Part shown: positions 13,631-64,000 of the stretch, in pieces | How positions within the stretch are numbered: the stretch's first letter is position 1 | Layout: every line of letters starts with the position of its first letter | Origin: a bacterium | GTDB lineage: Bacteria; Electryoneota; Electryoneia; Electryoneales; Electryoneaceae | DNA length: 64,000 bases | Direction: 5' to 3' | NCBI GenBank assembly: GCA_963675295.2 | Contig: CAXXKJ010000002.1 | Span: 2,720,001-2,784,000 of the forward strand | The notes under the pieces: generated by a model | Told to the model about the DNA's origin: nothing | Seen by the model: only the letters and a program-made list of their open reading frames with translations | The model's database searches: none | Position numbers and translations under genes: made by a program

Positions 13631-14671
13631 TTACTCCGCTTTGGCGGTTTCGTCGCCGCTGTCGGGTGAATCTTCCGTGACGGCTTCCGTCTCCGGTTCC
13701 GTTTCGGCTTCCGGGGCGGCTGCTTCGCCGTCGCCATTCATGCCGAGTTCTTTGCGCGCGGCGTCTTCCAGCTCTTTCGCCGTGCGCGGACCGCCCTTGA
13801 CGGGAGTCGTGATATCGACTTCCTCCTCGATGATCCAGTCATCGAGGTTGTAGTGCTCAAAGCGGGCTTCGTCGCAGATCATCGCCTTCATCACGCGGTA
13901 CTCATCCATCCGCGCGGTGACACGGTAGATCTTGCCACGGTACAGGCCCAGCATCGCCTCGGACCCGTTCTTGCACTTCACCGGATCCTTCATCGCCGAT
14001 TCCTTCAGGCGTGCCGGAACGTGTTCCAGGTCCCAGACACGGGCGCTGAAGCGCATTTTCTTGTCGGTCAACGCACCCACCGGGCAGACGTCGATCACAT
14101 TGCCCGCCCAACCGCTCGGAATCGCCGCTTCGATGTACGAGCCGACTTCGGCGTGATCGCCACGATTCAGCACGCCGATGTGCGCGACGCCCATATAGTC
14201 TTCCGACAGACGGATGCACCGGCGGCAATGGATGCAGCGGTTCATCTCTTTCGCGATCTTCTCGCCATAGTCTGTCTTCGGGAAGGTGCGGCGCGGGTAG
14301 CGTGTGCGCCCGACGGGGAACCCGTACTTGTAGCCGTAGTCCTGCAAATCGCATTCACCGGCCTGATCGCAAATCGGGCAATCCAGCGGATGGTGCAGCA
14401 GCAGGAACTCCATCACGCCACGGCGGGCCTTGAACACGCGCTCGTTGTTCGTGTTCACGACCATGCCGTCCCGGATCGGAGTCTGGCAGCCGATCTGCAG
14501 CTTGCCGATGCCTTCGACTTCGACGAGGCAGATGCGGCAGTTACCCTGCGGCGGGAACCACGGGTAGTAACAGTATGTCGGGATGTTGACACCGGCCTTG
14601 CGGGCAGCCCACAGGATGGTCACGCCATCCGGGACTTCCACCTGCTTGCCGTCTATGGTCACGTTGGGCAT
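13631..14671 (-). CDS. nuoG: Short NADH-quinone oxidoreductase subunit G (Fe-S domains only)
   Basis: CRICLVEVE, HPLDCPICDQAGECDLQ, CIHCRRC and DVCPVGAL; only ~346 aa and ends in an acidic tail. Confidence 0.92.
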   Translation of the reverse strand: MPNVTIDGKQVEVPDGVTILWAARKAGVNIPTYCYYPWFPPQGNCRICLVEVEGIGKLQIGCQTPIRDGMVVNTNNERVFKARRGVMEFLLLHHPLDCPICDQAGECDLQDYGYKYGFPVGRTRYPRRTFPKTDYGEKIAKEMNRCIHCRRCIRLSEDYMGVAHIGVLNRGDHAEVGSYIEAAIPSGWAGNVIDVCPVGALTDKKMRFSARVWDLEHVPARLKESAMKDPVKCKNGSEAMLGLYRGKIYRVTARMDEYRVMKAMICDEARFEHYNLDDWIIEEEVDITTPVKGGPRTAKELEDAARKELGMNGDGEAAAPEAETEPETEAVTEDSPDSGDETAKAE

Positions 14672-50711: not shown

Positions 50712-50784
50712 TCCCCAGTAGCTCAATTGGCAGAGCGGGTGACTGTTAATCACTAGGTTGGCGGTTCAAGTCCGTCCTGGGGAG
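50712..50784 (+). tRNA. tRNA-Asn(GTT), CCA not encoded
   Basis: Acceptor TCCCCAG/CTGGGGA, D-arm AGCTCAATTGGCAGAGC, anticodon arm GGTGA-CTGTTAA-TCACT and T-loop GGTTCAAGTCC. Confidence 0.96.
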
Positions 50785-50794
50785 CAAGAAAAAC

Positions 50795-50822
50795 AAAGGG
50801 TTAGGCGATTGTCTGACCCTTT
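50795..50822 (+). terminator. Terminator after tRNA-Asn
   Basis: AAAGGGTTAGGCGATTGTCTGACCCTTT. Confidence 0.75.
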
Positions 50823-50831
50823 CTCTTTGTG

Positions 50832-51011
50832 ATTTGGTGCATATGAGGTGCAGTAGATCATTGCGCGCCCCTTATACCATATTTCCTGCACCTGTTGACT
50901 TCACAAGGTGCTGACTCCCTCTTTCCCACTCTTCAGACGATTCACGAAAATCCAAAGTCTACACCTACGCAGTGCACCAAATTGCACCGAGACTGCACCT
51001 GATGTGCACCT
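50832..51011. repeat. Putative integrase arm-type sites, left end
   Basis: ATTTGGTGCATATGAGGTGCAGT at 50832-50854 and inverted TGCACC at 50973, 50983, 50994 and 51005 (10-11 bp phasing). Confidence 0.7.
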
Positions 51012-51157
51012 AACGACAGCTTGAGTAGTTTTATATGCCTGTATTTCCAAGTATATATATCAATATCTCCTGTGATTATTTATCCCCTGTTGACTTTTCC
51101 CGCCCCGTGTTGTAGCTTGACGTAGTGCTTAGACAGCGACATTTTCAGGGAGGCGTC

Positions 51158-52252
51158 ATGGCAACCATCGTGAAGCGGAAATCGAAACGGACAGGCAAGG
51201 TCACCTACCGAGTCCAGATTCGTATGAAGGGGTTCGACCGGCTTGAGGCCACTTTCGACCGGAGGACAGACGCTCGGGATTGGGCGCACCAGACCGAGGC
51301 AGACCTCAAGGCAGGCAAGCACATTGAACGTGCAGAAGCAAAGAAACACACGCTCAACGATGTTATCGAACGCTATGTGGAAAACGTGGCTCCGATGAAG
51401 AAAAGCGGGATGAAGCAGGCACGGCAGCTTGATTGGTGGAAGGAACGGTACGGTGAGCGCCTCCTGTCCGATATCACTCCCGCACTTATTACAGAAGCAC
51501 GGGATATACTGAAACGGGAAGGTGGCCGTGTGCAGGATGCGAAGGGCCGTCCGATTCCTGAAGATGGTGCGAGCAATGCAACCGTCAATAGATACCTCGC
51601 GGCGCTATCGCATGTGTTCACGGTTGCTTCGAAGGAATGGCAATGGGTACGAGATAATCCCGTGTTGAAGGTCTCCCGGCTGAAGGAACCGCGTGGAAGA
51701 GTACGTTATCTGGAGAACGGCGAACAGGAACGATTGCTGGAAGCCTGCAAAGCATCCAAGAATCCCGACCTCTACCCTGCCGTGATCCTTGCGCTTTCCA
51801 CTGGCGCACGGCGGATGGAGATTTGGGGCGTGCGTTGGGATCAGGTTGATTTCCCGCGTGAATTGATCGTGCTGCACGAGACGAAGAACCAGGAACGGCG
51901 TGTGCTGCCGATCAAAGGCCGTGCGCTGGAAATCCTGCGTGAACGGTCGCGTGTTCGTTCGCTTGAATCGGATCTGATCTTCCCGAGCCGGAAAGACCCG
52001 AAGAAACCGATGGATCTCCGCGCTCCGTGGGAAGAAGCGTTGAAACAGGCAGGAATTGAAAACTTCCGCTGGCATGACTTGCGTCATACGGCGGCTTCGT
52101 TCCTCGCCATGAACGGTGCGACACCGGGAGAAATTGCCGAGGTGCTCGGTCACAAGACGTTGCAGATGGTCAAGCGATACAGTCACCTGTCCGAGGCGCA
52201 CACGGCAACGGTTGTTGAGAGCATGAACAAGCGATTTCTGGAGGGAGCGTGA
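51158..52252 (+). CDS. Tyrosine recombinase/integrase
   Basis: TGARRME, TKN, HDLRH, LGH and RYSH catalytic residues; N-terminal arm-binding-like YRVQIR region; GGAGG RBS. Confidence 0.95.
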   Translation: MATIVKRKSKRTGKVTYRVQIRMKGFDRLEATFDRRTDARDWAHQTEADLKAGKHIERAEAKKHTLNDVIERYVENVAPMKKSGMKQARQLDWWKERYGERLLSDITPALITEARDILKREGGRVQDAKGRPIPEDGASNATVNRYLAALSHVFTVASKEWQWVRDNPVLKVSRLKEPRGRVRYLENGEQERLLEACKASKNPDLYPAVILALSTGARRMEIWGVRWDQVDFPRELIVLHETKNQERRVLPIKGRALEILRERSRVRSLESDLIFPSRKDPKKPMDLRAPWEEALKQAGIENFRWHDLRHTAASFLAMNGATPGEIAEVLGHKTLQMVKRYSHLSEAHTATVVESMNKRFLEGA

Positions 52253-52833
52253 AAATCGTGTATCGTGATCGACCCGATCAAAGGTTTGAAATCCGCGTTG
52301 CAATAGACTGCGCAGAGCTGGGAGATACAAGGGCTGCTGAATATCTTCTCGCGGTTGCGAGCGACTATCTGAGTGAGGGAGCCGTAATGCCGCTGCAGCT
52401 TCAACGTTATTTGAGCACAATTTGCAGGAATATTGCTAACTTGTATTTCCATGAACAATTGGGGCAAAACATACAACCAGCCAAGTACAGAGAGGCCCTA
52501 GGTCTTAAGCGTAGGACAAAAACAAAGCGGTCGGAGTTAAATCGTCGAGATCTACTTCTTACAAGAATGGTCTGGGAGAAAATAGAGAAGACTGGACTTA
52601 ACCTAGCGCAATGCTGGTCTGACGTAGCTGAACAATATGGTCTTAGTGAGGCAACAGTTGAGAAAGCATGGCAAAAACACCAGATTGAAGCTGAACAAGA
52701 TTTTGTGAAACTACGAGCATGGAGCACAGCACGAAATTCGGATGAACGACAACGTGCTGCAACAGATCTAGGATTGAATCATCCGCCCGCAACCTCGGTC
52801 AACTGGCCTTTTGTGCTAGACGACGAGACGTAA
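52249..52833 (+). CDS. Hypothetical protein with C-terminal HTH-like segment
   Basis: GTGA overlap with integrase stop; WSDVAEQYGLSEATVEKAW. Confidence 0.6.
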   Translation: MKIVYRDRPDQRFEIRVAIDCAELGDTRAAEYLLAVASDYLSEGAVMPLQLQRYLSTICRNIANLYFHEQLGQNIQPAKYREALGLKRRTKTKRSELNRRDLLLTRMVWEKIEKTGLNLAQCWSDVAEQYGLSEATVEKAWQKHQIEAEQDFVKLRAWSTARNSDERQRAATDLGLNHPPATSVNWPFVLDDET

Positions 52834-52933
52834 GGTTCCCACCAACCAATATTGCGCTTTTCGTGGGCCACCATTTCCCTTCTTACCCCTGATTTTGTGA
52901 TGCAGGACTGTACAACAAAATTGGGGTTTCCTC

Positions 52934-53143
52934 ATGAACGCCACATCAGTAAAGAAGTATTACACTGTCGCAGAAGCGGTCGAAGCTAACCTTTGGCCTA
53001 ACCAGGGCGGGTTGCGCTGGCTGATTTTCAGAGCACACGAAAACGGCCTCAAGCGTGCGCTTCGCCGGGTTGGTCGCCGCGTCTTGATTGACGCAGACGA
53101 GTTTATCCGCTGGATGGATGAACACGCAGAGGAGGCTGCGTGA
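52934..53143 (+). CDS. Excisionase/AlpA-like small DNA-binding protein
   Basis: 69 aa, YYTVAEA...LRWLIF...RVGRRVLID...FIRW. Confidence 0.75.
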   Translation: MNATSVKKYYTVAEAVEANLWPNQGGLRWLIFRAHENGLKRALRRVGRRVLIDADEFIRWMDEHAEEAA

Positions 53144-53499
53144 AGCAAATCCTCCCTAAAAGGTACGCGGCTCAAGTAGCGGCGTGGATAGAAAAACTAC
53201 AGGATCGGATCTTCGTCTTTCAAGAAGAAGAGATACCGGCTAAGCTCTGGAATCTCGCAGATAAAGCCCAGCAGCTTCTGAGTGGTGCTGACAGACTATT
53301 CCCTCTGTGCTTCAGCGATACCCAGCCTACGCACCTTCAACTACGTGATCCTGTAACGGGTGACTTGAATTGCAGGATTCGTGCGGTTAAACAAGATCGA
53401 AGCGGAACCGTCAGACTGGTGGTGGAATCACAGTCACGACCGGGGCAGCCGTTCCTGATAACCTTCCGCCAGTCCGGAGGACGGACGTATGTCAGTTGA
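53140..53499 (+). CDS. Hypothetical protein
   Basis: Overlaps both neighbours; GGAGG RBS. Confidence 0.55.
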   Translation: MKQILPKRYAAQVAAWIEKLQDRIFVFQEEEIPAKLWNLADKAQQLLSGADRLFPLCFSDTQPTHLQLRDPVTGDLNCRIRAVKQDRSGTVRLVVESQSRPGQPFLITFRQSGGRTYVS

Positions 53500-55504
53500 T
53501 CCGGCTGCAAGTGCAATCCTGAACGGATTGCCACAGGTGCCAGACCTTGACCAAATCCGGCGCGCGCATGGAATCTACAATGCCCTCGGCTACCGTACAT
53601 GCGAATTTGACCGTGGTACGAAAGCACCTCGTGAGCCCGGCTGGCCAACACGCACGGTCACAGAACCCAGGCTGCTGAACCTCGGGATCATACTTGGCGA
53701 GGCTAGCGGTTGGCTCACAGATGTTGACCTTGATACACCTGAAGCGATAGCAGCCGCACCCTGGATTCTACCAGCTACGAAGATGAAGAGCAGGCGTCAC
53801 GCTGCTCCGGTAAGTCACTTCTGGTATCGTTGCCAAGGTCTCCCACCAGACAAGACGCGTGTAGAGTACAACGATCCAAAACCTCCGAACGGCGGTCGCG
53901 CTTGTCTTGTCGAACTTCGCTGGGGCGGTAGAGGGGGCATACAAACCGCTGTACCTCCGTCTATCCTTCCCCGCTCTGACGGGTCCGGCGATGATCGGGT
54001 TGAGTGGGAGGACAAAAAGGCACTGACACCAGCAGAGGTCGATCCTGCAACCCTTCAACAGGCGGTGAGGAAGGTTGCCGCAGTCGCACTCCTTGCGCGA
54101 CGATGGGTGAGCGGAAAGCGTCATGCAATGGTCCTGCCTTGGGCTGGAACGCTCGCAAGAGGGGGGATCGGTGAAGATGCGGCTGTCCTATTGACGAAGG
54201 CGCTTTGTGCTGCTGCTGGCGATCCAGAAGTAGATGACCGCATTCAAGCCGTTGCCGATACCTATCAGAAACACGAGGCTGGGATCTCCAATTTTTCCGG
54301 CATACCCACCCTGAAATCCCACCTTGGCTCGAAGGAAACGGCACTGCTCTGCGAGTGGCTGGGAATCGAAACGGGGAGTGCACGTCTACCCCAACCGGAT
54401 CTATCCGTAGCTGAACGATATGTGCAGGTGAAAGACGATCTTTCTATTGAAGTCCTTGAAAACGCTCGCTTGGCAGAAGAAGACATTCAACTGCCCACAA
54501 TGCAGGATGTAATCAACAGGTGCGGGAAGATAACGTGGCTGTGGCAAGATTATCTGGCAAATGGTGCGATTACGCTTATCGTTGCGGATAAAGGCGTAGG
54601 CAAATCCTGGGTTGCACAAAGCATTGTAGCATGTGTAGTGCATGGGCTACCGTGGCCCAACTCAGCGTTCAACGAAGATTTAGACGGCGGATATGTGTTG
54701 TGGGTCGAAGCCGAGGGCCGAAAAGTACTGAACGCTAATCGGTTGAAGGGAATGAACGTTAATCTTGATCGGGTAGTAATGCCGGAAATCGATAGCGCGG
54801 GGATTGACTTGACCAAACCCCAGCATTGGTTGAAATTTGTCGGTGCGGCGCAAAGACCGGAGATCAAACTGATCGTGATTGACTCGCTATCCGGTGCTCA
54901 CGAAGGAGATGAAAACAAAACCCAGGACCAGCAACGTGTGATGAAGCGGCTCGCCAATTTCGCGGAATTTCTTCAGAAACCGATCATCGTGACGCACCAT
55001 CTACGAAAGAAGGCTCCAGGCCAGCAACGAAAAAATGTTGAGATAGACGATGTTCGGGGATCAGGCTCAATCACGCAGTACGCTCAGGTTATCGTTGGGA
55101 TTACCCGCACCAGCGATGAAAGCCCGGTGATGCACGTCAAGCAGATACGTAACAACCTCGTGGAACACCCGCGCGAACAACTCGAAGCACGTGTAGTGGA
55201 TGGAATTGTTGAATGGGATACCGTTGAATCATCCGATTCCGACACTTCCCATCAGTCACAAGCCTATAAGTTCTTCCTGTTCACACTCGAAGAAGCAGGA
55301 GACGGTGGAATCACCGCTAAGAAGCTGGTTGCGACCATGCAGCTGCAAGGACACAGTTACCAAGATTACCTGACAGCACGCGCCAAAGCGATTGTCGAAG
55401 ACCTTCTGGTAGAAGTTGATGAACGAGATATGCACGGCACGTTCCTCGGCAAGACACTGAAACTGGCGAAACCGATACCAGCTGGTGAAAACGATTCGTT
55501 CTAA
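53489..55504 (+). CDS. Prim-Pol primase fused to a RecA-like (AAA_25/RepA) helicase
   Basis: K.P...GW, NLGI..G..SGW..DVDLD, H.WY, PPS; Walker A-like ADKGVGKS, Walker B LIVIDS, HHLRK and RGSG.I. Confidence 0.85.
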   Translation: MSVDPAASAILNGLPQVPDLDQIRRAHGIYNALGYRTCEFDRGTKAPREPGWPTRTVTEPRLLNLGIILGEASGWLTDVDLDTPEAIAAAPWILPATKMKSRRHAAPVSHFWYRCQGLPPDKTRVEYNDPKPPNGGRACLVELRWGGRGGIQTAVPPSILPRSDGSGDDRVEWEDKKALTPAEVDPATLQQAVRKVAAVALLARRWVSGKRHAMVLPWAGTLARGGIGEDAAVLLTKALCAAAGDPEVDDRIQAVADTYQKHEAGISNFSGIPTLKSHLGSKETALLCEWLGIETGSARLPQPDLSVAERYVQVKDDLSIEVLENARLAEEDIQLPTMQDVINRCGKITWLWQDYLANGAITLIVADKGVGKSWVAQSIVACVVHGLPWPNSAFNEDLDGGYVLWVEAEGRKVLNANRLKGMNVNLDRVVMPEIDSAGIDLTKPQHWLKFVGAAQRPEIKLIVIDSLSGAHEGDENKTQDQQRVMKRLANFAEFLQKPIIVTHHLRKKAPGQQRKNVEIDDVRGSGSITQYAQVIVGITRTSDESPVMHVKQIRNNLVEHPREQLEARVVDGIVEWDTVESSDSDTSHQSQAYKFFLFTLEEAGDGGITAKKLVATMQLQGHSYQDYLTARAKAIVEDLLVEVDERDMHGTFLGKTLKLAKPIPAGENDSF

Positions 55505-55748
55505 TCCTAAAAATACCATGCAATATGCAATGCATCGGTCTCGTGAAAAGGGGGTTTTACACTACATGGTCGTTTTTATTGAACTTACGTCGAATGCGGT
55601 TTGCAACGCTTATGGCAAGGCACCATGGAATCGGGTGAGCCTTGCATACCGCGTAAGCTGTAAGTCGTTAAAAAACATCCATTGAGTCTAGGCCGCACCC
55701 CCAGTGCAACGCATTTTGCAATGCACACTGCAACGTATTTTTGGGATT
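55503..55748. promoter_or_regulatory. Putative replication origin bounded by a 32-bp imperfect inverted repeat
   Basis: 55503-55534 matches the reverse complement of 55717-55748 at 26/32 positions; repeated TGCAA units. Confidence 0.55.
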
Positions 55749-55772
55749 TTGATATCGAAAGGAGATCGAAGA

Positions 55773-56231
55773 ATGCCCACTGCTAAAAGAGCGACGCAAC
55801 AGCGAGGTAGACCGTTCAAACCCGGACAGAGCGGAAATCCGGCAGGCAGACCGCAAGGCTCGAAGCACAAAGCCACACTCGCGGCTGAGGCGCTGTTGGA
55901 TGGCGAGGCTGAGGCGTTGACACGGAAAGCTGTAGAAAAGGCGCTGGAAGGCGATACAACGGCGCTCAGGCTATGCTTGGAACGAATCGTGCCACCGCGC
56001 CGGGATCGGACCGTACCGTTCGATTTCCCCCAGGTAGAGACCGCTTCCGATACAGTCAAGGCAAAGACCGCGCTACTCCGGGTGGTTGCGGACGGTACCC
56101 TCTCCCCTGCCGAGGCGCAAGCGTTATCCGGACTGCTCGACGGATTCCTCAAGACCCTTGAAGTGGTCGAACTTGAAGAGCGGCTTGCTCGGGTTGAGGA
56201 GCGGATGGAACAGCAGAGGAACACACGTTGA
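55773..56231 (+). CDS. DUF5681-domain protein (terminase-small-subunit-like)
   Basis: PFKPGQSGNPAGRP.GS, A.EGD..AL..CLERI.P and a C-terminal coiled coil; AAGGAG RBS. Confidence 0.8.
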   Translation: MPTAKRATQQRGRPFKPGQSGNPAGRPQGSKHKATLAAEALLDGEAEALTRKAVEKALEGDTTALRLCLERIVPPRRDRTVPFDFPQVETASDTVKAKTALLRVVADGTLSPAEAQALSGLLDGFLKTLEVVELEERLARVEERMEQQRNTR

Positions 56232-56485
56232 ACCGCGCAATGTTGAATCGCCTCGAAGTGCTGGAGCGGCTGACGTTTGAACCTGACGGTTTCCAGGCAA
56301 TGCTTCGTTCGGAATATGATCGTCTGCTTTCAGAGCACGGTGACGAGGAGAGCGTCCGCAAGGTGCTCGGTGTCCGGCTGCTTGTCGTTGTGGATGAAGA
56401 CCCGCCCGGCGGAGACGAAATGGCCGTTTGGGCTGTTGAGTCGCTTTACTCGGCGCTGGAACGATCCGGATACGAGGGCAAATAA
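56228..56485 (+). CDS. Small hypothetical protein, paralogue A
   Basis: TTGA overlap with upstream stop; similar to the next two ORFs. Confidence 0.65.
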   Translation: MNRAMLNRLEVLERLTFEPDGFQAMLRSEYDRLLSEHGDEESVRKVLGVRLLVVVDEDPPGGDEMAVWAVESLYSALERSGYEGK

Positions 56486-56486
56486 C

Positions 56487-56942
56487 GTGAACCGTGCGAA
56501 GCTGCTTCATCGGCTGGATGTGCTTGAACGGTCACTCCCCCCTTCCCCGGTTTTGTTCATGTTGCCGGGAGAATGGCAGGAACATGTTCGGAAACATGGC
56601 GGAAGCGAATCCCGCGCAAAACGTGAACTTGGGACCGAGCCCGTGCTGGTGCCAGACGAGACCACTCGTGCGTATGCCGAGGAGATGTTCAACAATCCCG
56701 CTCCCAGTCTCCTTAGAACGACCGTGGCCGAGGTTTGGGACAAGATCTTTGAATGCAACGGCGGAACCCCTGCCATTTTAACCGATTTCCCGGTTGTCGT
56801 GTGCGCAGATTGGATGACGTATGACGCCCTCGCCGGGAAAAACCCGTTGATTACCCGGTTCGGGTGCGGCTTGACCGGAGAGGAACACCGTGATCTCGAA
56901 GATGAAGCGGCGGCTGAAGACGCTCGAAGATCGGCTGAATAG
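56487..56942 (+). CDS. Hypothetical protein, paralogue B
   Basis: GTG start 1 nt after the stop of paralogue A; begins NRAKLLHRLDVLER. Confidence 0.65.
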   Translation: MNRAKLLHRLDVLERSLPPSPVLFMLPGEWQEHVRKHGGSESRAKRELGTEPVLVPDETTRAYAEEMFNNPAPSLLRTTVAEVWDKIFECNGGTPAILTDFPVVVCADWMTYDALAGKNPLITRFGCGLTGEEHRDLEDEAAAEDARRSAE

Positions 56943-57111
56943 CGTCTCCGGGTTGACAGTGTTCCTCGCGTCAGAGTGGCACAAACTGCTCGAACAGCAC
57001 TGCGGAGATGAATACGCGGCTCGTAGGAGCACCGGTTCACACGTACTGATCGTCTCTAAATCGGCTGATCGAGAGGCGCTGCAAGCGTGCCTGGATGCTG
57101 TCTACAGATAA
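56890..57111 (+). CDS. Small hypothetical protein, paralogue C
   Basis: GAGGA RBS before GTG; RRLKTLE...FLASEW..LLEQH. Confidence 0.55.
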   Translation: MISKMKRRLKTLEDRLNSVSGLTVFLASEWHKLLEQHCGDEYAARRSTGSHVLIVSKSADREALQACLDAVYR

Positions 57112-57251
57112 AATCTGAAAACCATTGCGAACACCTCCAAGAGTCACCTGCCCAAGAATACCAATCAGCACATGCCTCTGTTTGTGAATTCTTGTACTCT
57201 CTGCACTAAGTTGAAAGCCAAACTCAGTCACCAGTACTGGAGATTGGTCCG

Positions 57252-59351
57252 ATGAAAATCAGCGTCTCTGTGATTCTAGTTTGCTTCACAGCACTCACAG
57301 CATCCGCACAGCCGGTTTGGGTTGACCGTGAGATACACTCCGGCCTTGACCAAGATTTGACCGCAAACATAGCTGATATTGATGGGGATGGAGACCTTGA
57401 CATTCTCTCTGCATCCTACAATTCCGATTACGTACAATGGTGGGATAATCTTGATGGTACTGGACTTAACTGGTCGTATCACCCTATTGGAAGTATAGAT
57501 GGTGCTCGTTCCTCGTACGCTGGCGATATTGATGGAGATGGTGATTTAGATGTTGTTGGTGCAGCATATTTTGATGATGATGTTATATGGTGGGAAAACG
57601 CAAATGGTAACGGGACAAACTGGATAGAACATACGGTAGATGACAATTTTAATGGCGTTAATGCAGTTTATATATCTGACATTGACGGTGATGGAGATAA
57701 TGATGTGATCGGTGGCTCTTGGTGGAATGGATTCAAGTGGTGGGAAAATATTGACGGTGATGGAAGGTTTTGGAATACATATACTGTTTCTGGAACAGAT
57801 TATGGTGTATCAGTTCACTGCGCTGACGTAGATAGTGATGGTGATATTGATGTATTAGGAGCATCAACAGACAACGAAAAACTATTTTGGTGTGAAAATG
57901 AGGATAGTAATGGCACATCATGGATCGAACATACTATGTCATTAAATTCGGGTGATGCAAGAGATGTAAATACGATAGATATTGACTCAGATGGCGATAT
58001 AGATATTATAGGTGCTATAGATCATAGTATTATGATTTGGGAAAATGACGGTACCAATAATATAAATGATTGGAATGAATATACTTCTGGAAACATAGGT
58101 GGTACAATGTCAGTATATGCCGTAGATGTTAATGAAGACGGTTGGATGGACATTCTATCTTCAATATGGTCGGGTACGCCGATATCTTGGTGGGAAAATG
58201 ATGGTACGAATGATATTTCTAACTGGTTAGAACACCTTGTAACAGAAGAAGGAGGAGAGTTTGGCAGTGTAAAAGAAGCATGTTCGGGAGATTTTGATTC
58301 TGATGGTGATTGGGACGTACTTGGAGCATCCTATGATTCAATCACGTGGTGGGAGCAACATTACCCGACAGAGATTTTAGCTCCAAATGGTGGTGAGGCT
58401 TGGAGAATCGGGACAACTCACGATATTGAATGGAGTACTACTGCGGACCAGACAATCACCCTTGATCTTCTTGATGGTGAAAATCTGGAACGTACATTGG
58501 CCGAGGATATTGAAAACTCTGGAATCCTTGAATGGACAATTCCGAACGATATTCAACCGGGTCAGAACTACTACATCCGGTGCACTATAGCTGATGGTTC
58601 CGAACAAGACGTTAGCGATGTAGCGTTTGCAATTACTGCTCTCCCCGGATTGACTCTTACTCCGCATTTACCCCCGATTATTATTCCGTCACAGGGTAAT
58701 GGTTTCTGGTACTGGGTTGAGATAAGTAATCACTCTCCATTTTCAGGAACCGGTCACTACTGGACTGAGGTCGTTTTACCGAATGGAAACACTTATGGCC
58801 CACTGTCAGTTACGCCCAAGACGCTAGAGCCGTGGCAGACGTTTGCCCCCGGCCTACCCTTCCCACAGTGGATACCAGCCTATGCACCGGCAGGTACATA
58901 CGATTTCGTGATGCACGTGGGTATCTACCCGAATTTGATCGTTGCAACAGATAGCTTCGAGTTTGAAAAGCTAGCAGGGACAAGCACGGTTTCCGTCCCT
59001 CAGTCTGCCTGGAACGTGGAGGACTGGCGCAACGAAGCATGGGAGACCACGGGTGCACAGGTAGCCACTCAGGAACCGCTCCCTAACGAGTTCAGCGTCT
59101 CCCCCGCGTATCCGAACCCCTTCAATGCCAGCATCTCGCTCACGGTGTTCCTGCCCGAACCGGCAGAACTGACTGTGACCGTCTACGACGTGCTCGGGCG
59201 CGAGGTGGCTATCCTTGCCAATGGACAACACTCTGCCGGGAAAAATCGGCTTACGTTTGAAGCATCCGGCTTGGCGAGCGGTCTGTATTTCGTCCGCGCG
59301 ACGGTTCCCGGCCACCTCGACCAGGTGCAGAAGGTGATGTTGGTTCGCTAG
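57252..59351 (+). CDS. Secreted 7-repeat FG-GAP/VCBS propeller with Ig-like domains and T9SS-type tail
   Basis: Signal peptide, seven DxDxDGD...WWEN-type repeats, APNGGE.W Ig-like domain, LPNG/PAGTY domain and YPNPFN tail. Confidence 0.88.
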   Translation: MKISVSVILVCFTALTASAQPVWVDREIHSGLDQDLTANIADIDGDGDLDILSASYNSDYVQWWDNLDGTGLNWSYHPIGSIDGARSSYAGDIDGDGDLDVVGAAYFDDDVIWWENANGNGTNWIEHTVDDNFNGVNAVYISDIDGDGDNDVIGGSWWNGFKWWENIDGDGRFWNTYTVSGTDYGVSVHCADVDSDGDIDVLGASTDNEKLFWCENEDSNGTSWIEHTMSLNSGDARDVNTIDIDSDGDIDIIGAIDHSIMIWENDGTNNINDWNEYTSGNIGGTMSVYAVDVNEDGWMDILSSIWSGTPISWWENDGTNDISNWLEHLVTEEGGEFGSVKEACSGDFDSDGDWDVLGASYDSITWWEQHYPTEILAPNGGEAWRIGTTHDIEWSTTADQTITLDLLDGENLERTLAEDIENSGILEWTIPNDIQPGQNYYIRCTIADGSEQDVSDVAFAITALPGLTLTPHLPPIIIPSQGNGFWYWVEISNHSPFSGTGHYWTEVVLPNGNTYGPLSVTPKTLEPWQTFAPGLPFPQWIPAYAPAGTYDFVMHVGIYPNLIVATDSFEFEKLAGTSTVSVPQSAWNVEDWRNEAWETTGAQVATQEPLPNEFSVSPAYPNPFNASISLTVFLPEPAELTVTVYDVLGREVAILANGQHSAGKNRLTFEASGLASGLYFVRATVPGHLDQVQKVMLVR

Positions 59352-59376
59352 CTAGACAAGCTACGGCAGATTTATC

Positions 59377-59409
59377 AAAGGGCGCTTCGGTCACATCGGG
59401 CGCCTTTTT
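59377..59409 (+). terminator. Probable terminator
   Basis: GGCGC...GCGCC stem followed by TTTTT. Confidence 0.5.
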
Positions 59410-59801
59410 CTGTAACTTCCTATACGAAGGCGTTCAAAGGGAAAGTTATGGAAAATCGTGTCCAACCCGCCCTATGTGCCCCACGAAAAATTTCCAGAAA
59501 ATATATCAGTGCGTTCGATCCCGAGGCTCCGTAGGTACCGGTTTACGGGGTATTTCCACGCAGGCCGTATCTCCACTACGGGGGCCGTTTCTGCGCAAGA
59601 CAGGTTTTCACGCACTTTTTTGTGTTGTCTCGCTGCAGCGCGCTGCGTGCAGCACCTTGAATCGGGGGATGTCAGCACACAACAAAACAAAAATGAGAAT
59701 CCGGATTGCTGGGATAGCAAGCCTGATACACAAACCGTATATTGATTTTCAGGGATCGATCTAAGCCACGCAGCTGGGATCAGTATCTGGGGGAGGGAAT
59801 C

Positions 59802-61637
59802 ATGAAAAAGCTTACCATCCTACTTTGTGCCATTCTGATGTGCACCACTGCATCCGCGCAAGAATGGACCGAACACGCGGTAGATTCTGAGTTTGAAGGT
59901 GCAAACTGCGTTTACGCGGCAGATGTGGATAATGATGGTGACATAGATGTGCTTGGCGCAGCAATTTTTGCAGATGACATTACTTGGTGGGAGAATCTGG
60001 ATGGTACAGGTCTGGTCTGGTTTGAACACATAGTGGATGGAGAATATGATGGTGTTCAAAGTGTTTACGCGGCAGATATGGACGGTGACGGCGATATCGA
60101 TGTTTTGGGCGCTGCATATTCTGTAGACGAGATCACTTGGTGGGAAAATTTAGATGGCAATGGATTGAGCTGGGCTGAACACGTGGTTGACGAGAATTTC
60201 AATGGATGCAGGAAAGCATATGCGGCTGATGTGGACGGCGACGGCGACATGGACGTACTCGGCGCAGCAAGTTCTTCCGATATGATCGCTTGGTGGGAGA
60301 ATCTCGATGGCACAGGCCTGAACTGGTCTGAACACATAGTTGATGAAATGTATAATTACGCGCATTGTGTTTTCACGGCGGATGTGAATGGAGATGGCAA
60401 CATGGATGTGCTTGGTGCTGCATGTATTGACGGCATTGTCTGGTGGGAGAATCTCGATGGTACAGGCCTGAACTGGTCTGAACACGTAGTAGATGAAATG
60501 TTTGATTGCGCGGTAAATGTTTACGCGGCAGATGTGGATAATGATGGTGACATAGATGTGCTAGGCGCAGCCCGAAATGTCAACGATACAGACGACATTG
60601 CCTGGTGGGAAAACGTAGATGGCGATGGGCTGAACTGGTCCGAACACTCGTTGGACGAGAATTACGACGGCGCTTGGGGTGTTCATGCAACGGATATGGA
60701 CGGCGATGGCGATGTGGACATACTAAGCTCTGCCCAACACGCCCAAGAGATCACCTATTGGGAGAATCTGGATGGTACAGGACTTACCTGGTTTGAACAC
60801 ACAGTGGATGACTCGTTTGATATGGCAAGGGGTGTTTTTGCTGAAGATGTAGATGGTGATGGCGACATCGATGTTCTGGGGGCAGCTCTATTTGCCGATG
60901 ATATCGCCTGGTGGGAACAGCTTGGATCTCCCGACCTGATCGACATCAGCCTGACCGCCCCGAATCCGCTAATCGTACCCCGGGGAGGGAGTTTTCAATA
61001 CGAAGCCCTGGTAACGAGCAACCTTCCTTCACCATACAATGTAGACTTCTGGACGTATGTCAGCTTGCCCAACGGTTCGCCTTATGGCCCGCTGCAACGG
61101 ATCAACAACGTTCCGATGACACCAACGACAATCATCGGACCGGTCAACCTGGGTCTTGCTATTCCCCAGACCGCCGTCCTGGGTGAGTACACCTTCCATA
61201 TGCAGGCTGGACGATTCCCGGCAACGGTGGTCGGGGAAGACGAGTTCCCCTTTGAAGTGGTCGCAGCTACCGGCACAAACGGCCTGCCATCCAGCGATTG
61301 GTCCGCATGGGGACTGGACCAGCTACACCAGACTAGTAGCGAAGAAACGGTTACTGATGTGGCTACTCCCACTACCTACTCGCTTGCCGGTGCGTATCCG
61401 AACCCGTTCAACGCGAGCACTACGCTGACCGTGAACCTGCCGGAGATAGCTGAATTGACCGTGGTCGTGTACAACACGCTTGGCCAGGAGGTGGTGCGAA
61501 TAGCGGACGGCACCATGTCGGCCGGGAAGCACGATTTCTCCTTCAACGCCAGCACGTTATCCAGCGGTGTCTATTTTGTCCAGGTACGGGTACCAGGCAA
61601 ACTGGACGAGTTACGAAAAGTCGTTTTGATGAAATAG
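59802..61637 (+). CDS. Secreted 7-repeat FG-GAP/VCBS propeller with T9SS-type tail
   Basis: MKK signal peptide, seven W.EH.VD...D.DGDGD.DVLGAA...WWEN repeats and YPNPFN tail. Confidence 0.9.
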   Translation: MKKLTILLCAILMCTTASAQEWTEHAVDSEFEGANCVYAADVDNDGDIDVLGAAIFADDITWWENLDGTGLVWFEHIVDGEYDGVQSVYAADMDGDGDIDVLGAAYSVDEITWWENLDGNGLSWAEHVVDENFNGCRKAYAADVDGDGDMDVLGAASSSDMIAWWENLDGTGLNWSEHIVDEMYNYAHCVFTADVNGDGNMDVLGAACIDGIVWWENLDGTGLNWSEHVVDEMFDCAVNVYAADVDNDGDIDVLGAARNVNDTDDIAWWENVDGDGLNWSEHSLDENYDGAWGVHATDMDGDGDVDILSSAQHAQEITYWENLDGTGLTWFEHTVDDSFDMARGVFAEDVDGDGDIDVLGAALFADDIAWWEQLGSPDLIDISLTAPNPLIVPRGGSFQYEALVTSNLPSPYNVDFWTYVSLPNGSPYGPLQRINNVPMTPTTIIGPVNLGLAIPQTAVLGEYTFHMQAGRFPATVVGEDEFPFEVVAATGTNGLPSSDWSAWGLDQLHQTSSEETVTDVATPTTYSLAGAYPNPFNASTTLTVNLPEIAELTVVVYNTLGQEVVRIADGTMSAGKHDFSFNASTLSSGVYFVQVRVPGKLDELRKVVLMK

Positions 61638-61671
61638 GCGGAAATTCTGCCAGTATCTGGGGGAGGGAATC

Positions 61672-63495
61672 GTGAAAAAGCTCGTCATTCTTTTCTTTGC
61701 CATCCTGATGTGCACCACTGCATCCGCACAAGAGTGGGTCGAACACGCCGTGGACGGCGATTCATTTGGTGCTTGTTCCGCATACGCCATGGATATTGAC
61801 GGCGATGGCGATATCGACGTGCTTGCTGCAGCGACGTTTGCCCATGAGATAACCTGGTCGGAGAACACAGATGGATTGGGCACAGTCTGGACCGAACACA
61901 CCGTGGACGGCAATTTTGGCTACACAGAGTCTGTTTACGCAACAGACATTGACGGTGACGGTGACATCGACGTAGTTGGTGCGGCGACTGAGGACCTAGT
62001 CACTTGGTGGGAAAATGTTGCTGGATCTGGCACGGTATGGACCGAACACACCGTGGACAACAATATTGATAACCCGCGTTCTGTTTACGCAACAGACATT
62101 GACGGTGACGGTGACACAGATGTGCTCGGTGCTGCATATTTTGGAGATGAAATCATTTGGTGGGAAAACGTTGACGGCGCGGGCAGTGCGTGGAACGAAC
62201 ACACTGTGGATGGTGCTTTTGAAGGTGCAATCTCGGTGTACGCAACAGATATGGACGGCGACGGCGACACCGATGTGCTTGGTGGGGGGTTTCATGCTGA
62301 CGAAATCACATGGTGGGAGAACACCAACGGTGTCGGCACAGTCTGGACAGAACATACCATAGACGGTGATTTCGAAGCGTTTTCCGTTTACGCAACAGAC
62401 ATTGACGGCGACGGCGATGTCGACGTTTTTGGTGGTGATACGGGTTTTTCTGTCCAGGGCCTCACGTGGTGGGAGAACGTTGATGGTGCCGGCACGGTGT
62501 GGACCGAATACCTATTGGACGGCGATTGCGTTGGCGTACGTTCCGTGTATGCGACAGATGTTGATGGCGACGGCGACACTGACTTGCTCGCAGCAGATCA
62601 GTGGGAGAACAACATCTCGTGGTGGGAAAACGAGAATGGCGATGGCAGCGAGTGGATCAGACACACTGTAATTGGAGATTTCGAGGGCCCTCAATCTGTT
62701 TACGCCACGGATATTGACGGTGACGGCGATATCGACGTACTTGGTGCGGCTAACCCAGGCTACGAAATAGCATGGTGGGAACAGGTGAATGCGGAACTCA
62801 CCCTTGTTCCTCATCAAACCACAGTTCCTTCCGGTGGTGGACACCTAATCTTCGATGTGACCTTATCTATCCCCGGAAATGTTCACATGCTTCATGCACA
62901 GTTTTGGACGGAGCTGACATTCCCGAATGGCGGCGAATGCTTGCTGCATATGCGTGCATTTGAAGTTGATCCGTTCATGAATTTATCGTTCTCAGATATC
63001 GCAACACAAAATGTGCCAGCTGCCGCTCCGCCTGGGATTTACACATACACCGCCAGTGCGGGTCGGAACGGTTTTCCTCGATTGATTGAAGTCACGGATT
63101 CCTTCGAGTTCGAGAAATTGGGCGATGCAACTGTATGCAGTAACTATGTGTTCAAGCCCGACGATTGGCAGTTCAACGGTCTGGACTTTGGATCGGAAGC
63201 GGGTGATGTTCAAGCGACCATTGTACCTGACGAGTTTATGGTGACAGCTCCCTACCCGAATCCCTTTAATTCGACCACCTGCATTAGTATCAGACTGCCG
63301 GAAACAACTAAGCTGGAGGTGACTGTATTTAGCGTGACCGGGCAGCGAGTCGTTAAACTGGCGAACGGCCGGTATCAGGCCGGATCGCACACGCTGACCT
63401 TCGACGCGTCCAACCTCGCGTCCGGCCTGTACTTCATCCGCGCCACCGTGCCTGGCCAGCTCGACCAAGTGCAGAAGGTGATACTGGTGCGCTGA
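61672..63495 (+). CDS. Secreted 7-repeat FG-GAP/VCBS propeller with T9SS-type tail
   Basis: Same architecture; GTG start in a leader nearly identical to that of the preceding gene. Confidence 0.9.
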   Translation: MKKLVILFFAILMCTTASAQEWVEHAVDGDSFGACSAYAMDIDGDGDIDVLAAATFAHEITWSENTDGLGTVWTEHTVDGNFGYTESVYATDIDGDGDIDVVGAATEDLVTWWENVAGSGTVWTEHTVDNNIDNPRSVYATDIDGDGDTDVLGAAYFGDEIIWWENVDGAGSAWNEHTVDGAFEGAISVYATDMDGDGDTDVLGGGFHADEITWWENTNGVGTVWTEHTIDGDFEAFSVYATDIDGDGDVDVFGGDTGFSVQGLTWWENVDGAGTVWTEYLLDGDCVGVRSVYATDVDGDGDTDLLAADQWENNISWWENENGDGSEWIRHTVIGDFEGPQSVYATDIDGDGDIDVLGAANPGYEIAWWEQVNAELTLVPHQTTVPSGGGHLIFDVTLSIPGNVHMLHAQFWTELTFPNGGECLLHMRAFEVDPFMNLSFSDIATQNVPAAAPPGIYTYTASAGRNGFPRLIEVTDSFEFEKLGDATVCSNYVFKPDDWQFNGLDFGSEAGDVQATIVPDEFMVTAPYPNPFNSTTCISIRLPETTKLEVTVFSVTGQRVVKLANGRYQAGSHTLTFDASNLASGLYFIRATVPGQLDQVQKVILVR

Positions 63496-63722
63496 AGCAG
63501 CCCGGTTCCACAGGGAGCTTCTAAGAGTCGAAAGCGGCCACAGGTCAAATACCTTGACCATGTGGCCGTTTGTCGCTCAGGGGCGCTCTATTGGCCTTTC
63601 TGGCGTGTAGAATCTCAAGCAGCGTACAGGAAAGCGATCAGGGATGTGGTTATGGTACGAGTTACACTATTTGATTTCGAATCCGGCAGAAGGCCCATCC
63701 CGCATGGCTTTCGCCGCTCTAA

Positions 63723-63745
63723 ATTTGGTGCAAATGAGGTGCAGT
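63723..63745. repeat. Putative integrase arm-type site, right end
   Basis: ATTTGGTGCAAATGAGGTGCAGT, 22/23 identical to 50832-50854. Confidence 0.8.
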
Positions 63746-63848
63746 GAGGACAACAAACTGCCATATTCAGCAAACAGCGCCAAGAGTTAACCTCTTAAAG
63801 AAACAATTGGTAACAATTGCAGCTTGTTGTGATATATGGTATTGCTAA

Positions 63849-63895
63849 GACTACGGATCAGGAGGTTTGGGGTTCGAATCCCTACAAGAGTACCA
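63849..63895 (+). pseudogene. 3' half of tRNA-Arg(ACG), att-type fragment
   Basis: GA-CTACGGA-TCAGG-AGGTT-TGGGG-TTCGAAT-CCCTA-CAAGAGT-A-CCA; no D-arm or 5' acceptor strand upstream. Confidence 0.8.
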
Positions 63896-63899
63896 TATG

Positions 63900-63929
63900 A
63901 AAGGGTCAGGCAGCTGCCTGACCCTTTTT
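63900..63929 (+). terminator. Terminator after the tRNA fragment
   Basis: Perfect palindrome AAAGGGTCAGGCAGCTGCCTGACCCTTT followed by further Ts. Confidence 0.75.
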
Positions 63930-64000
63930 CGTAGCGCAAGACGGACTAGATTCAGAAAACGAATCGAACTCGGAAAGAAACCAGATCAACCACTGGATCA

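Follow-up and report, generated by a model that had tools for sequence, protein, structure and literature searches.

A tRNA-linked, satellite-like integrative island with secreted FG-GAP propellers as its apparent cargo in an Electryoneota genome

The stretch of DNA considered here (the window) comprises 64,000 nt, G000:C2:2720001-2784000, of a 4.8-Mb genome (G000) from the bacterial phylum Electryoneota; positions without a prefix are those of the window. Between a tRNA-Asn gene and a partial tRNA gene (50785-63895) lie a tyrosine integrase gene, a primase-helicase gene, a DUF5681 gene followed by three small genes that are paralogues of one another, and three genes for large propeller proteins with the sorting tail of the type IX secretion system (T9SS). 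Domain scans found all of them where the original prediction, an earlier reading of the same DNA, had placed them. That reading took the 13.1-kb unit for a satellite resembling the phage-inducible chromosomal islands (PICIs). The unit was compared with genomes of the same genus (G001-G003), with a genome of another genus (G005) and with a survey of 79 species genomes of the phylum. All genes from the integrase to the third propeller lie on the plus strand.

The integration target on the attL side is tRNA-Asn(GTT), found at 50712-50785 on the plus strand by ARAGORN and by the Rfam tRNA model (67.4 bits); neither detected any other tRNA in the window. An exact-match scan revealed a 50-nt perfect direct repeat whose left copy (50741-50790) spans the tRNA from its anticodon loop to 5 nt beyond its end. 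The right copy, G000:C2:2795962-2796011, lies 12 kb past the window and was located as the tRNA-Asn attR by alignment with the same-genus genome G001. Downstream of the tRNA, a terminator-like hairpin (50795-50825) is both an inverted repeat and one copy of an 81% repeat, with its kin at 63900-63930. It is followed, ahead of the integrase gene, by a cluster of the hexamer GGTGCA (50836-51010; two on the plus and five on the minus strand). These seven copies fall within 175 nt, and 22 are present in 20 kb, where 12.6 would be expected. The cluster may represent arm-type binding sites for the integrase and excisionase, corresponding to the P' arm. At the other end of the unit, a P-arm-like region (63536-63848) has two further copies (63727 and 63738), which are held in a 23-nt repeat common to the left end and this right region. 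The approximately 310 nt before 63849 are 71% identical to a copy 12 kb downstream, directly before the true tRNA-Asn attR.

The junction in which the unit itself ends is of the attR type but belongs to another tRNA: it is a 47-nt 3' fragment of tRNA-Arg(ACG) on the plus strand (63849-63895). This fragment shares 96% identity with the corresponding 3' part of the tRNA-Arg gene in the genome; its first 38 nt match exactly and the two mismatches are in the last nine. The hairpin that follows (63900-63930) resembles the tRNA-Asn terminator and not that of tRNA-Arg, and 63849-63930 is thus a chimeric junction, for which recombination between islands is one possible origin. The left boundary given by the original prediction was therefore borne out at tRNA-Asn, whereas the right one proved to be the tRNA-Arg fragment, with the true attR 12 kb past the window. 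Flanking att repeats were found for a 25.2-kb unit and not for the 13.1-kb unit, and, since the latter has no matching att ends, it makes up the half next to the integrase of a composite island of low GC that is 25.2 kb long. It probably cannot excise alone in its present state, because its right junction is a fragment of tRNA-Arg and not of tRNA-Asn. The GC profile agrees with the 25.2-kb limits: 0.574 in the upstream flank, 0.539 in the backbone, 0.504 in the three propellers, 0.520 in the distal 12 kb and 0.573 beyond attR, against 0.578 for the whole genome.

The first gene of the island (51125-52252; probable start ATG 51158) encodes a tyrosine integrase, one of the five PICI core components, that matches Phage_integrase above the cutoff (E 4e-31), as well as Int_N and phrog_1 (E 1e-66). 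Next to it, orf194 (52249-52833; 194 aa) occupies a variable accessory slot between the integrase and a small helix-turn-helix (HTH) protein; it has no Pfam, NCBIfam or PADLOC match and no paralogue in the genome. The small protein (52934-53143; 69 aa) is weakly assigned as excisionase/AlpA-like. It is kept after the integrase in 12 related islands, and a sequence search of the PDB gave nothing. HTH_17 is matched in four of 13 family members and does not reach the threshold (E 0.04; 14.6 bits, where the cutoff is 27). Both genes had been correctly seen, and the labels "HTH gene" and "xis-like" given to them were not confirmed, orf194 having no family match and the 69-aa protein falling below the cutoff. 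After orf119 (53140-53499; 119 aa; no family match in Pfam, PHROGs or NCBIfam), a 671-aa replicase (53489-55504) was found in which a PrimPol N-domain is fused to an AAA_25/DnaB_C-type helicase. Prim-Pol (27 bits), AAA_25 (98.5 bits) and DnaB_C (34.5 bits) all score above cutoff, and the protein also matches the primase/helicase family phrog_239. The 268-nt intergenic region that follows (55505-55772) contains five TGCAAYG repeats, flanked by 32-nt inverted repeats. All five are on the plus strand within the 210 nt of 55526-55735, as the earlier mention of an ori-like repeat had held, and the window has 27 matches in total. The arrangement beside the replicase is of the iteron type and is a candidate origin; the primase-replicase module of a PICI is represented here by the replicase domains, next to the iteron cluster.

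The scans covered 13 ORFs (open reading frames) of at least 60 aa in the island part of the window (Pfam, PHROGs, NCBIfam) and 15 ORFs of at least 90 aa in the distal part, ten of them inside the 25.2 kb. No capsid, portal, tail, lysis, large-terminase, relaxase or conjugation family was found among the former, and no capsid, portal, tail, lysis or large-terminase family among the latter. The tail, holin and portal genes that a PICI must lack are thus absent from the scanned ORFs, and no ORF matched a PICI capsid-morphogenesis gene, which only type A possesses. PADLOC recognised no defence family in any of 14 proteins. A decayed prophage stripped of its structural genes would agree with the fact that integrase, replicase and DUF5681 protein all have PHROG relatives. 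The original prediction had reported capsid, tail and conjugation genes to be missing and had named adjacent structural phage genes as the sign of such a prophage; they were missing in our scans also, and many islands whose cargo is not of phage type have the same compact backbone, so that this origin is considered very improbable.

The gene after the candidate origin (55773-56231) encodes a DUF5681 protein (PF18932, 58.8 bits against a cutoff of 27.5), which we take to be small-terminase (TerS)-like. It is followed by the small paralogues 1 (56228-56485; 85 aa), 2 (56487-56942; 151 aa, from a presumed GTG start) and 3 (56902-57111; 69 aa), which share 29-33% mutual identity and nine invariant columns. 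A fourth member, homologous to paralogue 3, adjoins the only other DUF5681 gene of the genome, and DUF5681 follows the replicase in three islands: the one at tRNA-Asn, one at tRNA-Met and one in the genome G009. The family is large (9,538 cluster representatives at E <= 1e-3), and of 592 candidate stretches in IMG/VR, 412 were confirmed to encode a relative. Eighty viral loci were kept, and 58 with at least 1.8 kb of downstream sequence were screened for a next ORF that begins within 1.5 kb and has at least 300 aa; 50 of them had one. This next large ORF contained a large-terminase domain in 26 of the 50 loci and a portal domain in 11, and had no Pfam match in 13; a terminase or portal gene hence came next in 37 of 50. 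DUF5681 accordingly occupies the small-terminase position in phage contigs, and a TerS-like role in packaging appears probable from this gene order. If it is so counted, the island has four of the five PICI core functions, the regulator among them being doubtful: the layout would be that of a type-B-like PICI, with integrase, primase-replicase, probable TerS and no capsid-morphogenesis gene. This genomic context would also offer evidence that the widespread DUF5681 family as such comprises packaging proteins of the small-terminase type.

The three genes after the small paralogues encode propellers that are predicted to be secreted. Propeller 1 (57252-59351) consists of a signal peptide, seven FG-GAP blades, a Kre9_KNH-like immunoglobulin (Ig)-like domain, a stalk and a T9SS tail; its gene has a GC content of 0.465 and a terminator hairpin of its own (59379-59412). 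Propeller 2 (59802-61637) has 611 aa counted from ATG 59802, and propeller 3 (61672-63495) has 607 aa. Each begins with a signal-peptide-like hydrophobic helix ending in ASAQ and has exactly seven DxDxDGxxD motifs, FG-GAP_3 matches range from E 1e-36 to 1e-41, and the tails, which read YPNPFN, match Por_Secre_tail/TIGR04183 at 40-45 bits against a cutoff of 23. An AlphaFold model of propeller 3 (11-row alignment; mean predicted local distance difference test, pLDDT, of 80) shows 28 strands at residues 21-372 arranged as seven four-stranded blades, for which the pLDDT exceeds 90. These are followed by a beta-sandwich (377-480), a linker that is modelled poorly, and the sorting domain. Motifs, TIGR04183 and this model agree with the signal peptide, sevenfold FG-GAP repeat and YPNPFN tail described earlier. 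The top Foldseek matches in the PDB were aldos-2-ulose dehydratase (E 1.8e-14), integrin alphaV (E 5.8e-14) and CRTAC1, and the predicted fold is an integrin-alpha-like seven-bladed propeller with calcium-type loops on an Ig-like stalk. The host encodes the corresponding machinery, PorU (708 bits) and SprA (830 bits) both scoring above cutoff, which the original prediction had proposed to check. Sorting domain, signal peptide and host machinery together mark the propellers by sequence as T9SS cargo of type A. They may be surface-exposed binding proteins of the adhesin or lectin type, an idea that had been put forward before and seems reasonable in view of their architecture. The secreted repertoire of this 4.8-Mb genome is unusually large: at least 150 T9SS-tailed ORFs were scored (421 candidates), and there are 66 full-length FG-GAP propeller paralogues.

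The island at tRNA-Asn is not alone in the genome. By tblastn, paralogues of its integrase were found beside tRNA-Arg(ACG) (61% identity), tRNA-Lys(TTT) (49%) and tRNA-Pro (truncated), and more distant ones beside tRNA-Ser, tRNA-Gln, tRNA-Met and the tmRNA. The tRNA-Arg island encodes an integrase, a 275-aa protein, a small HTH protein, a 96-aa protein, an NrS-1-pol-like replicase, a 114-aa protein and a propeller with FG-GAP, Kre9_KNH and T9SS domains. In the tRNA-Ser island (G000:C2:1460615-1476000), which begins with its integrase, a DUF5906 helicase is followed by two small ORFs, an LVIVD propeller with a T9SS tail, two FG-GAP/T9SS propellers and an AAA_15 (OLD/Gabija-like) ATPase. The tRNA-Lys island (G000:C2:3326647-3340000) has an integrase, a 239-aa protein, an HTH protein, a DUF3987 primase-helicase, a type I restriction-modification system with a T5orf172 gene, and DUF4238. 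The tRNA-Met region has an integrase and a propeller at one end and an AAA_25 helicase, DUF5681 and a small paralogue at the other. At a threshold of E <= 1e-40, the integrase family is present in 12 of the 79 phylum genomes and in nine of the 15 other genomes of the same bacterial family, and a tRNA adjoins the integrase gene in 13 of 17 fetched loci. Fourteen related loci were annotated with Pfam on ORFs of at least 180 aa, integrase ORFs and three short loci having been excluded. Most of them display the order integrase, an ORF of 230-340 aa, small HTH protein and an interchangeable replicase, which may be of the PrimPol-DUF3987, D5_N-DUF5906, NrS-1-pol-like or AAA_25 type. Their cargo is mostly defence: type I restriction-modification (two of the 14), GmrSD, AbiEii with Eco57I and SNF2/PLD, ResIII with TIR and a methylase, a BsuBI/PstI endonuclease, and KAP/NPHP3-type NTPases. 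The locus of G008 has another T9SS-tailed protein. As an observation apart, PrimPol and AAA_25 helicase genes are separated by an rve-type transposase of an insertion sequence (IS) in the tRNA-Thr island of G012 (L128:11799-14909), as if an IS had inserted into a PrimPol-helicase fusion like that of the window and split it.

The position of the propellers suggests that they belong to these islands. At tRNA-Asn, all three lie between the backbone and the junction formed by the P arm and the partial tRNA, inside the GGTGCA arm motifs. In the tRNA-Arg and tRNA-Ser islands, and likewise in G005, the replication module is directly followed by a propeller, and in the tRNA-Met island a propeller adjoins the integrase. 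For four of nine integrase genes, a propeller is found on the island side at a distance of no more than 10 kb, compared with 11% of random sites (P = 0.011, with a threshold chosen post hoc). The eight island-borne copies have a median GC of 0.512, as opposed to 0.571 for the other 58 (Mann-Whitney p = 4e-5). On a FastTree phylogeny of all 66 copies, for which the program warns of long branches, the island label changes five times, compared with a mean of 7.7 after shuffling, and none of 500 shuffles was as low. Two supported clades unite copies from different islands, one of them consisting of propeller 1 with the Arg-island and Met-island copies and the other of propeller 2 with those of the distal half and the Ser island. 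The closest paralogue of propeller 1 is indeed the propeller of the tRNA-Arg island (49%). Furthermore, a 726-nt 3' module encoding stalk and T9SS tail is 96.8% identical between 60963-61688 of the window and G000:C2:1469792-1470517. Its partners are propeller 2, with an FG-GAP head, and the LVIVD-propeller gene of the tRNA-Ser island, and this sequence identity is read as a recent swap of heads on a common stalk and tail module. It was concluded that the propellers are probably genuine cargo, travelling and diversifying with the islands.

We are highly confident that the locus is an integrative island of a mobile type, and, taken together, a tRNA-targeting island with satellite-like transfer and propeller cargo is the interpretation that we moderately favour. 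According to it, the integrase, aided by the small HTH protein, would excise the element via the GGTGCA arm sites, and the replicase would amplify the circle from the iterons. The TerS-like protein would then divert the large terminase and the capsids of a helper phage to island DNA, as in PICIs of type B and in VEIMEs (integrative mobile elements that are encapsidated in virions). Such a helper is proposed because capsid, tail and conjugation genes are all missing from the island itself. The cargo delivered would be three calcium-binding, integrin-alpha-like propellers on an Ig-like stalk, exported by Sec and T9SS, and the islands would act as vehicles and recombination sites that diversify the 66-member propeller family.

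Several observations weigh against this interpretation, the first of them concerning packaging. The monomer model of the DUF5681 protein (pLDDT 87) is all-helical, with four helices and a C-terminal helix of 40 residues. Foldseek found no TerS fold for it in the PDB (best E 0.69), and its fold matches in BFVD were unnamed or DUF5681 proteins and one weak row for a homeodomain protein of the phBC6A51 type. No TerS family was matched in Pfam, PHROGs or NCBIfam, tblastn against a phage collection gave one unannotated record, and most of the viral DUF5681 matches span only the N-terminal 60 residues or so. A DUF5681 protein has also been reported in a virion proteome, according to the portion of that report used here (PMC8954984); such a location is atypical for TerS. 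No resident helper was recognised, as neither Terminase_6C nor Phage_portal was matched in the genome. A lone, weak Terminase_6N ORF (25.8 bits; L139:9879-11393, on G000:C2) is surrounded by genes for TonB receptors and MacB-type permeases, and neither a portal nor any other phage family occurs in its neighbourhood. The locus is present as contigs in four public sequencing runs of one study, none of them an RNA run. The circular form or raised coverage that the original prediction had proposed to look for were not seen in these public contigs, which cannot show rare forms: there was no excision or circle joint, and the depth of the island (43) equals that of its flanks (36-45). Finally, none of 29 pattern matches to the replicase was confirmed as a close relative in the genome contigs. 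A protein search gave four others at E <= 1e-10, all over the PrimPol domain only, and partial matches occur in seven of the 79 phylum genomes. By sequence the replicase is thus close to a singleton; nothing points to a spread of this particular element, and its backbone is not that of a widespread family.

These facts would be accommodated by a cargo-type integrative element that is not a satellite and that resembles the tycheposons. Its own integrase and primase-helicase would excise and replicate it, DUF5681 and the small paralogues would be regulatory or replicative, and it would move by vesicles, transformation or recombination in the flanks. Its layout fits the tycheposon description as excerpted here, in which a tyrosine recombinase that targets tRNAs is accompanied by replication genes and a cargo module, and in which tandem arrays and scattered partial tRNAs occur (Hackl et al., 10.1101/2020.12.28.424599), and cargo-carrying tycheposons are stated in the same excerpts not to have been detected in the phage fraction. 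That neither a capsid-morphogenesis gene nor a helper prophage was found, and that structure searches gave no TerS fold for DUF5681, also agree with it. The location of DUF5681 before a terminase or portal gene in 37 of 50 viral loci is, however, hard to explain without a packaging role, and a lone TerS homologue without the large terminase (TerL) is a hallmark of satellites in the part of the source used here (de Sousa et al. 2023, PMC10085698). We consider the non-satellite element unlikely, though the most serious of the competing explanations, and the transfer of the island by a helper phage is put forward tentatively, as possible rather than probable.

A further group of objections concerns the cargo. 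The 13.1-kb unit has tRNA-Asn at its left end and a fragment of tRNA-Arg at its right, which do not match, and the 66 propellers and dense T9SS genes of the genome make chance adjacency non-negligible. The propellers had been presented as a novelty plugged into the host, and they turned out to be members of this resident family; no recent import from outside is apparent, the best outside homologues of propeller 1 being at most 49% identical. Outside the source genome, an FG-GAP propeller is present in only two of the 14 related islands (G005 and G001). The idea of a satellite family that distributes propellers is supported as regards the same slot in the sister islands and is not supported as regards islands elsewhere, where defence cargo prevails. 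In G001 the order is tRNA-Asn, hairpin, GGTGCA arm motif and then directly a propeller gene (L024:3450-5653), with no integrase before the contig end. A propeller at the locus in a relative lacking the backbone had been named as evidence against the island, and this arrangement weighs in that direction. On another contig of G001 (L121:117-3406), a propeller lies just upstream of an integrase 82% identical to that of the window; propeller genes may therefore lie between arm and integrase in that genome, with the loci on separate contigs. In IMG/VR, FG-GAP propellers were confirmed in at least seven loci (585 candidate stretches) and are not obviously on satellites.

It could accordingly be argued that the island is a fixed, decaying remnant and that its propellers are ordinary members of the chromosomal family, accreted in a plasticity zone next to a tRNA and not selected as cargo. 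The mismatched ends of the 13.1-kb unit, the IS200-type transposase and gene fragment just past it, the coverage equal to that of the flanks, the 66 paralogues among at least 150 T9SS ORFs and the two propellers of G001, one without an integrase and one upstream of the orthologous integrase, would all be consistent with such a view. On the other hand, all backbone ORFs are intact and the two 50-nt att copies that bound the 25.2-kb unit are identical. In addition, the island-borne propellers have a significantly lower GC content and cluster on the tree, two islands have recently exchanged a 96.8%-identical module, and independent islands at four tRNAs, as well as one in another genus, have the same order of genes. 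A remnant is therefore regarded as improbable, and the island with propeller cargo is retained.

As regards the function of this cargo, the propellers could conceivably be an anti-phage payload at the cell surface, masking or mimicking phage receptors as a shield or decoy. The accessory slot of sister islands holds restriction-modification, TIR, AbiE or GmrSD systems, and the decoy idea gains a little because the equivalent slot is thus used for defence; we nevertheless consider it a long shot. If it were true, the host would be protected and infection would be biased towards the helper, the diversification between islands would amount to an arms race with the receptor-binding proteins of phages, and a secreted, surface-level class of defence would exist on satellites in T9SS-bearing bacteria.

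The island was compared with known systems on the basis of excerpts of the cited papers. In the sense of SatelliteFinder, it resembles a PICI of type B in its size of about 13 kb and in its gene order, which runs from the integrase through an accessory gene and a small regulator or excisionase to the primase-replicase, the TerS homologue and, after it, accessory genes. Genes for tail, holin and portal are lacking in both (de Sousa et al. 2023, PMC10085698). It differs in that no capsid-morphogenesis gene was recognised and the regulator and TerS assignments are weak or contextual. Its cargo is secreted propellers and not defence or virulence genes, and the likeness is one of gene content and order. 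The host also sets it apart, as it belongs to a lineage of the Fibrobacterota-Chlorobiota-Bacteroidota type, while more than 99.9% of PICIs are in Proteobacteria and Firmicutes in the portion of the text consulted (PMC10085698). The designation as a satellite or PICI-like island was partly supported, with respect to the tRNA location, the replication module and the DUF5681 gene in the TerS position, and has to be qualified since matching att sites do not flank the 13.1-kb unit. VEIMEs of marine bacteria, whose hosts include Flavobacteria, are described in similar terms in the passages used, with integrase, AlpA/excisionase, primase/helicase, a TerS homologue and no capsid genes (Eppley et al. 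2022, PMC9618062). They are defined there by concatemers in virus particles, whereas the island is known from its genes and is likened to them by description.

With tycheposons, as the excerpted text portrays them (10.1101/2020.12.28.424599), the island shares tyrosine recombinases that are specific for tRNAs, a single genome having paralogous integrases for several of these, and swappable replication modules. Tandem accretion with stray partial tRNAs inside islands, the presence of cargo-carrying and PICI-like forms in one family, and cargo adapted to the ecology of the host are further common traits. The tycheposon layout of a tRNA-targeting recombinase, partial-tRNA flanks and replication and cargo modules was found here, the likeness being architectural only. 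The lineage is different, the cargo is surface or secreted proteins and not nutrient-uptake operons, and the island combines a TerS-like gene with non-defence cargo, which the excerpts treat as separate categories. At the level of the proteins, the propellers resemble those of integrin alpha, with seven blades and calcium-type DxDxDGxxD loops followed by a beta-sandwich, and depart from it in having no beta-subunit partner and in being encoded on a mobile island. They also conform to T9SS cargo composed of head, Ig-like stalk and sorting domain, here of type A, with a 3' module common to FG-GAP and LVIVD heads.

To call the whole an undescribed system was too strong, as PICIs, VEIMEs and tycheposons have been described already. 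The kind of element, a satellite-like or tycheposon-like integrative element, is known, and what is new is the lineage and the class of cargo; among the papers listed by a non-exhaustive literature search, none linked satellites to T9SS propellers. Most of what is known about such islands comes from Proteobacteria, Firmicutes and marine plankton, where they carry genes for defence, virulence or nutrient uptake. Here, a little-studied, T9SS-bearing phylum possesses a whole family of them at different tRNAs, and one genome has repeatedly loaded its islands with integrin-like propellers from a 66-member family. The island-borne propellers form low-GC lineages of their own and exchange modules among themselves, which suggests a concrete way, open to testing, for T9SS surface proteins of large families to diversify and spread.

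The distal 12 kb of the composite island contain an IS200/Y1-type transposase gene (G000:C2:2784510-2784971), which has a depth of 283 in the public contigs as compared with about 40 in its flanks (about 7x) and must hence belong to an IS present in many copies in the genome. A gene fragment, a fourth FG-GAP/T9SS propeller and a beta-helix T9SS protein are also found there, and the propellers are consequently the only cargo of the 13.1-kb unit, as originally stated, and not of the 25.2-kb unit bounded by the tRNA-Asn repeats. On the minus strand (G000:C2:2785577-2792468), three genes in a run encode a histidine kinase, a response regulator of the sigma-54 (NtrC) type and the FG-GAP/T9SS propeller, and the sensor part of the kinase is itself composed of FG-GAP repeats and UnbV_ASPIC. 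The only match in the window to the sigma-54 promoter consensus is at 14587, with one mismatch and far from the propellers. The empty site could not be reconstructed within the genus, as the sulfatase past attR has only paralogues of at most 50% identity in G001-G003; the contig of G002 stops at the position of tRNA-Asn. In the tRNA-Arg island, a histidine kinase and a sigma-54 regulator likewise come directly after the propeller. Elsewhere in the genome, ARAGORN reported a tRNA of undetermined type with a four-base anticodon (tttc; G000:C2:4439111-4439194) and a tRNA-Ile(aat) (C2:720395-720476).

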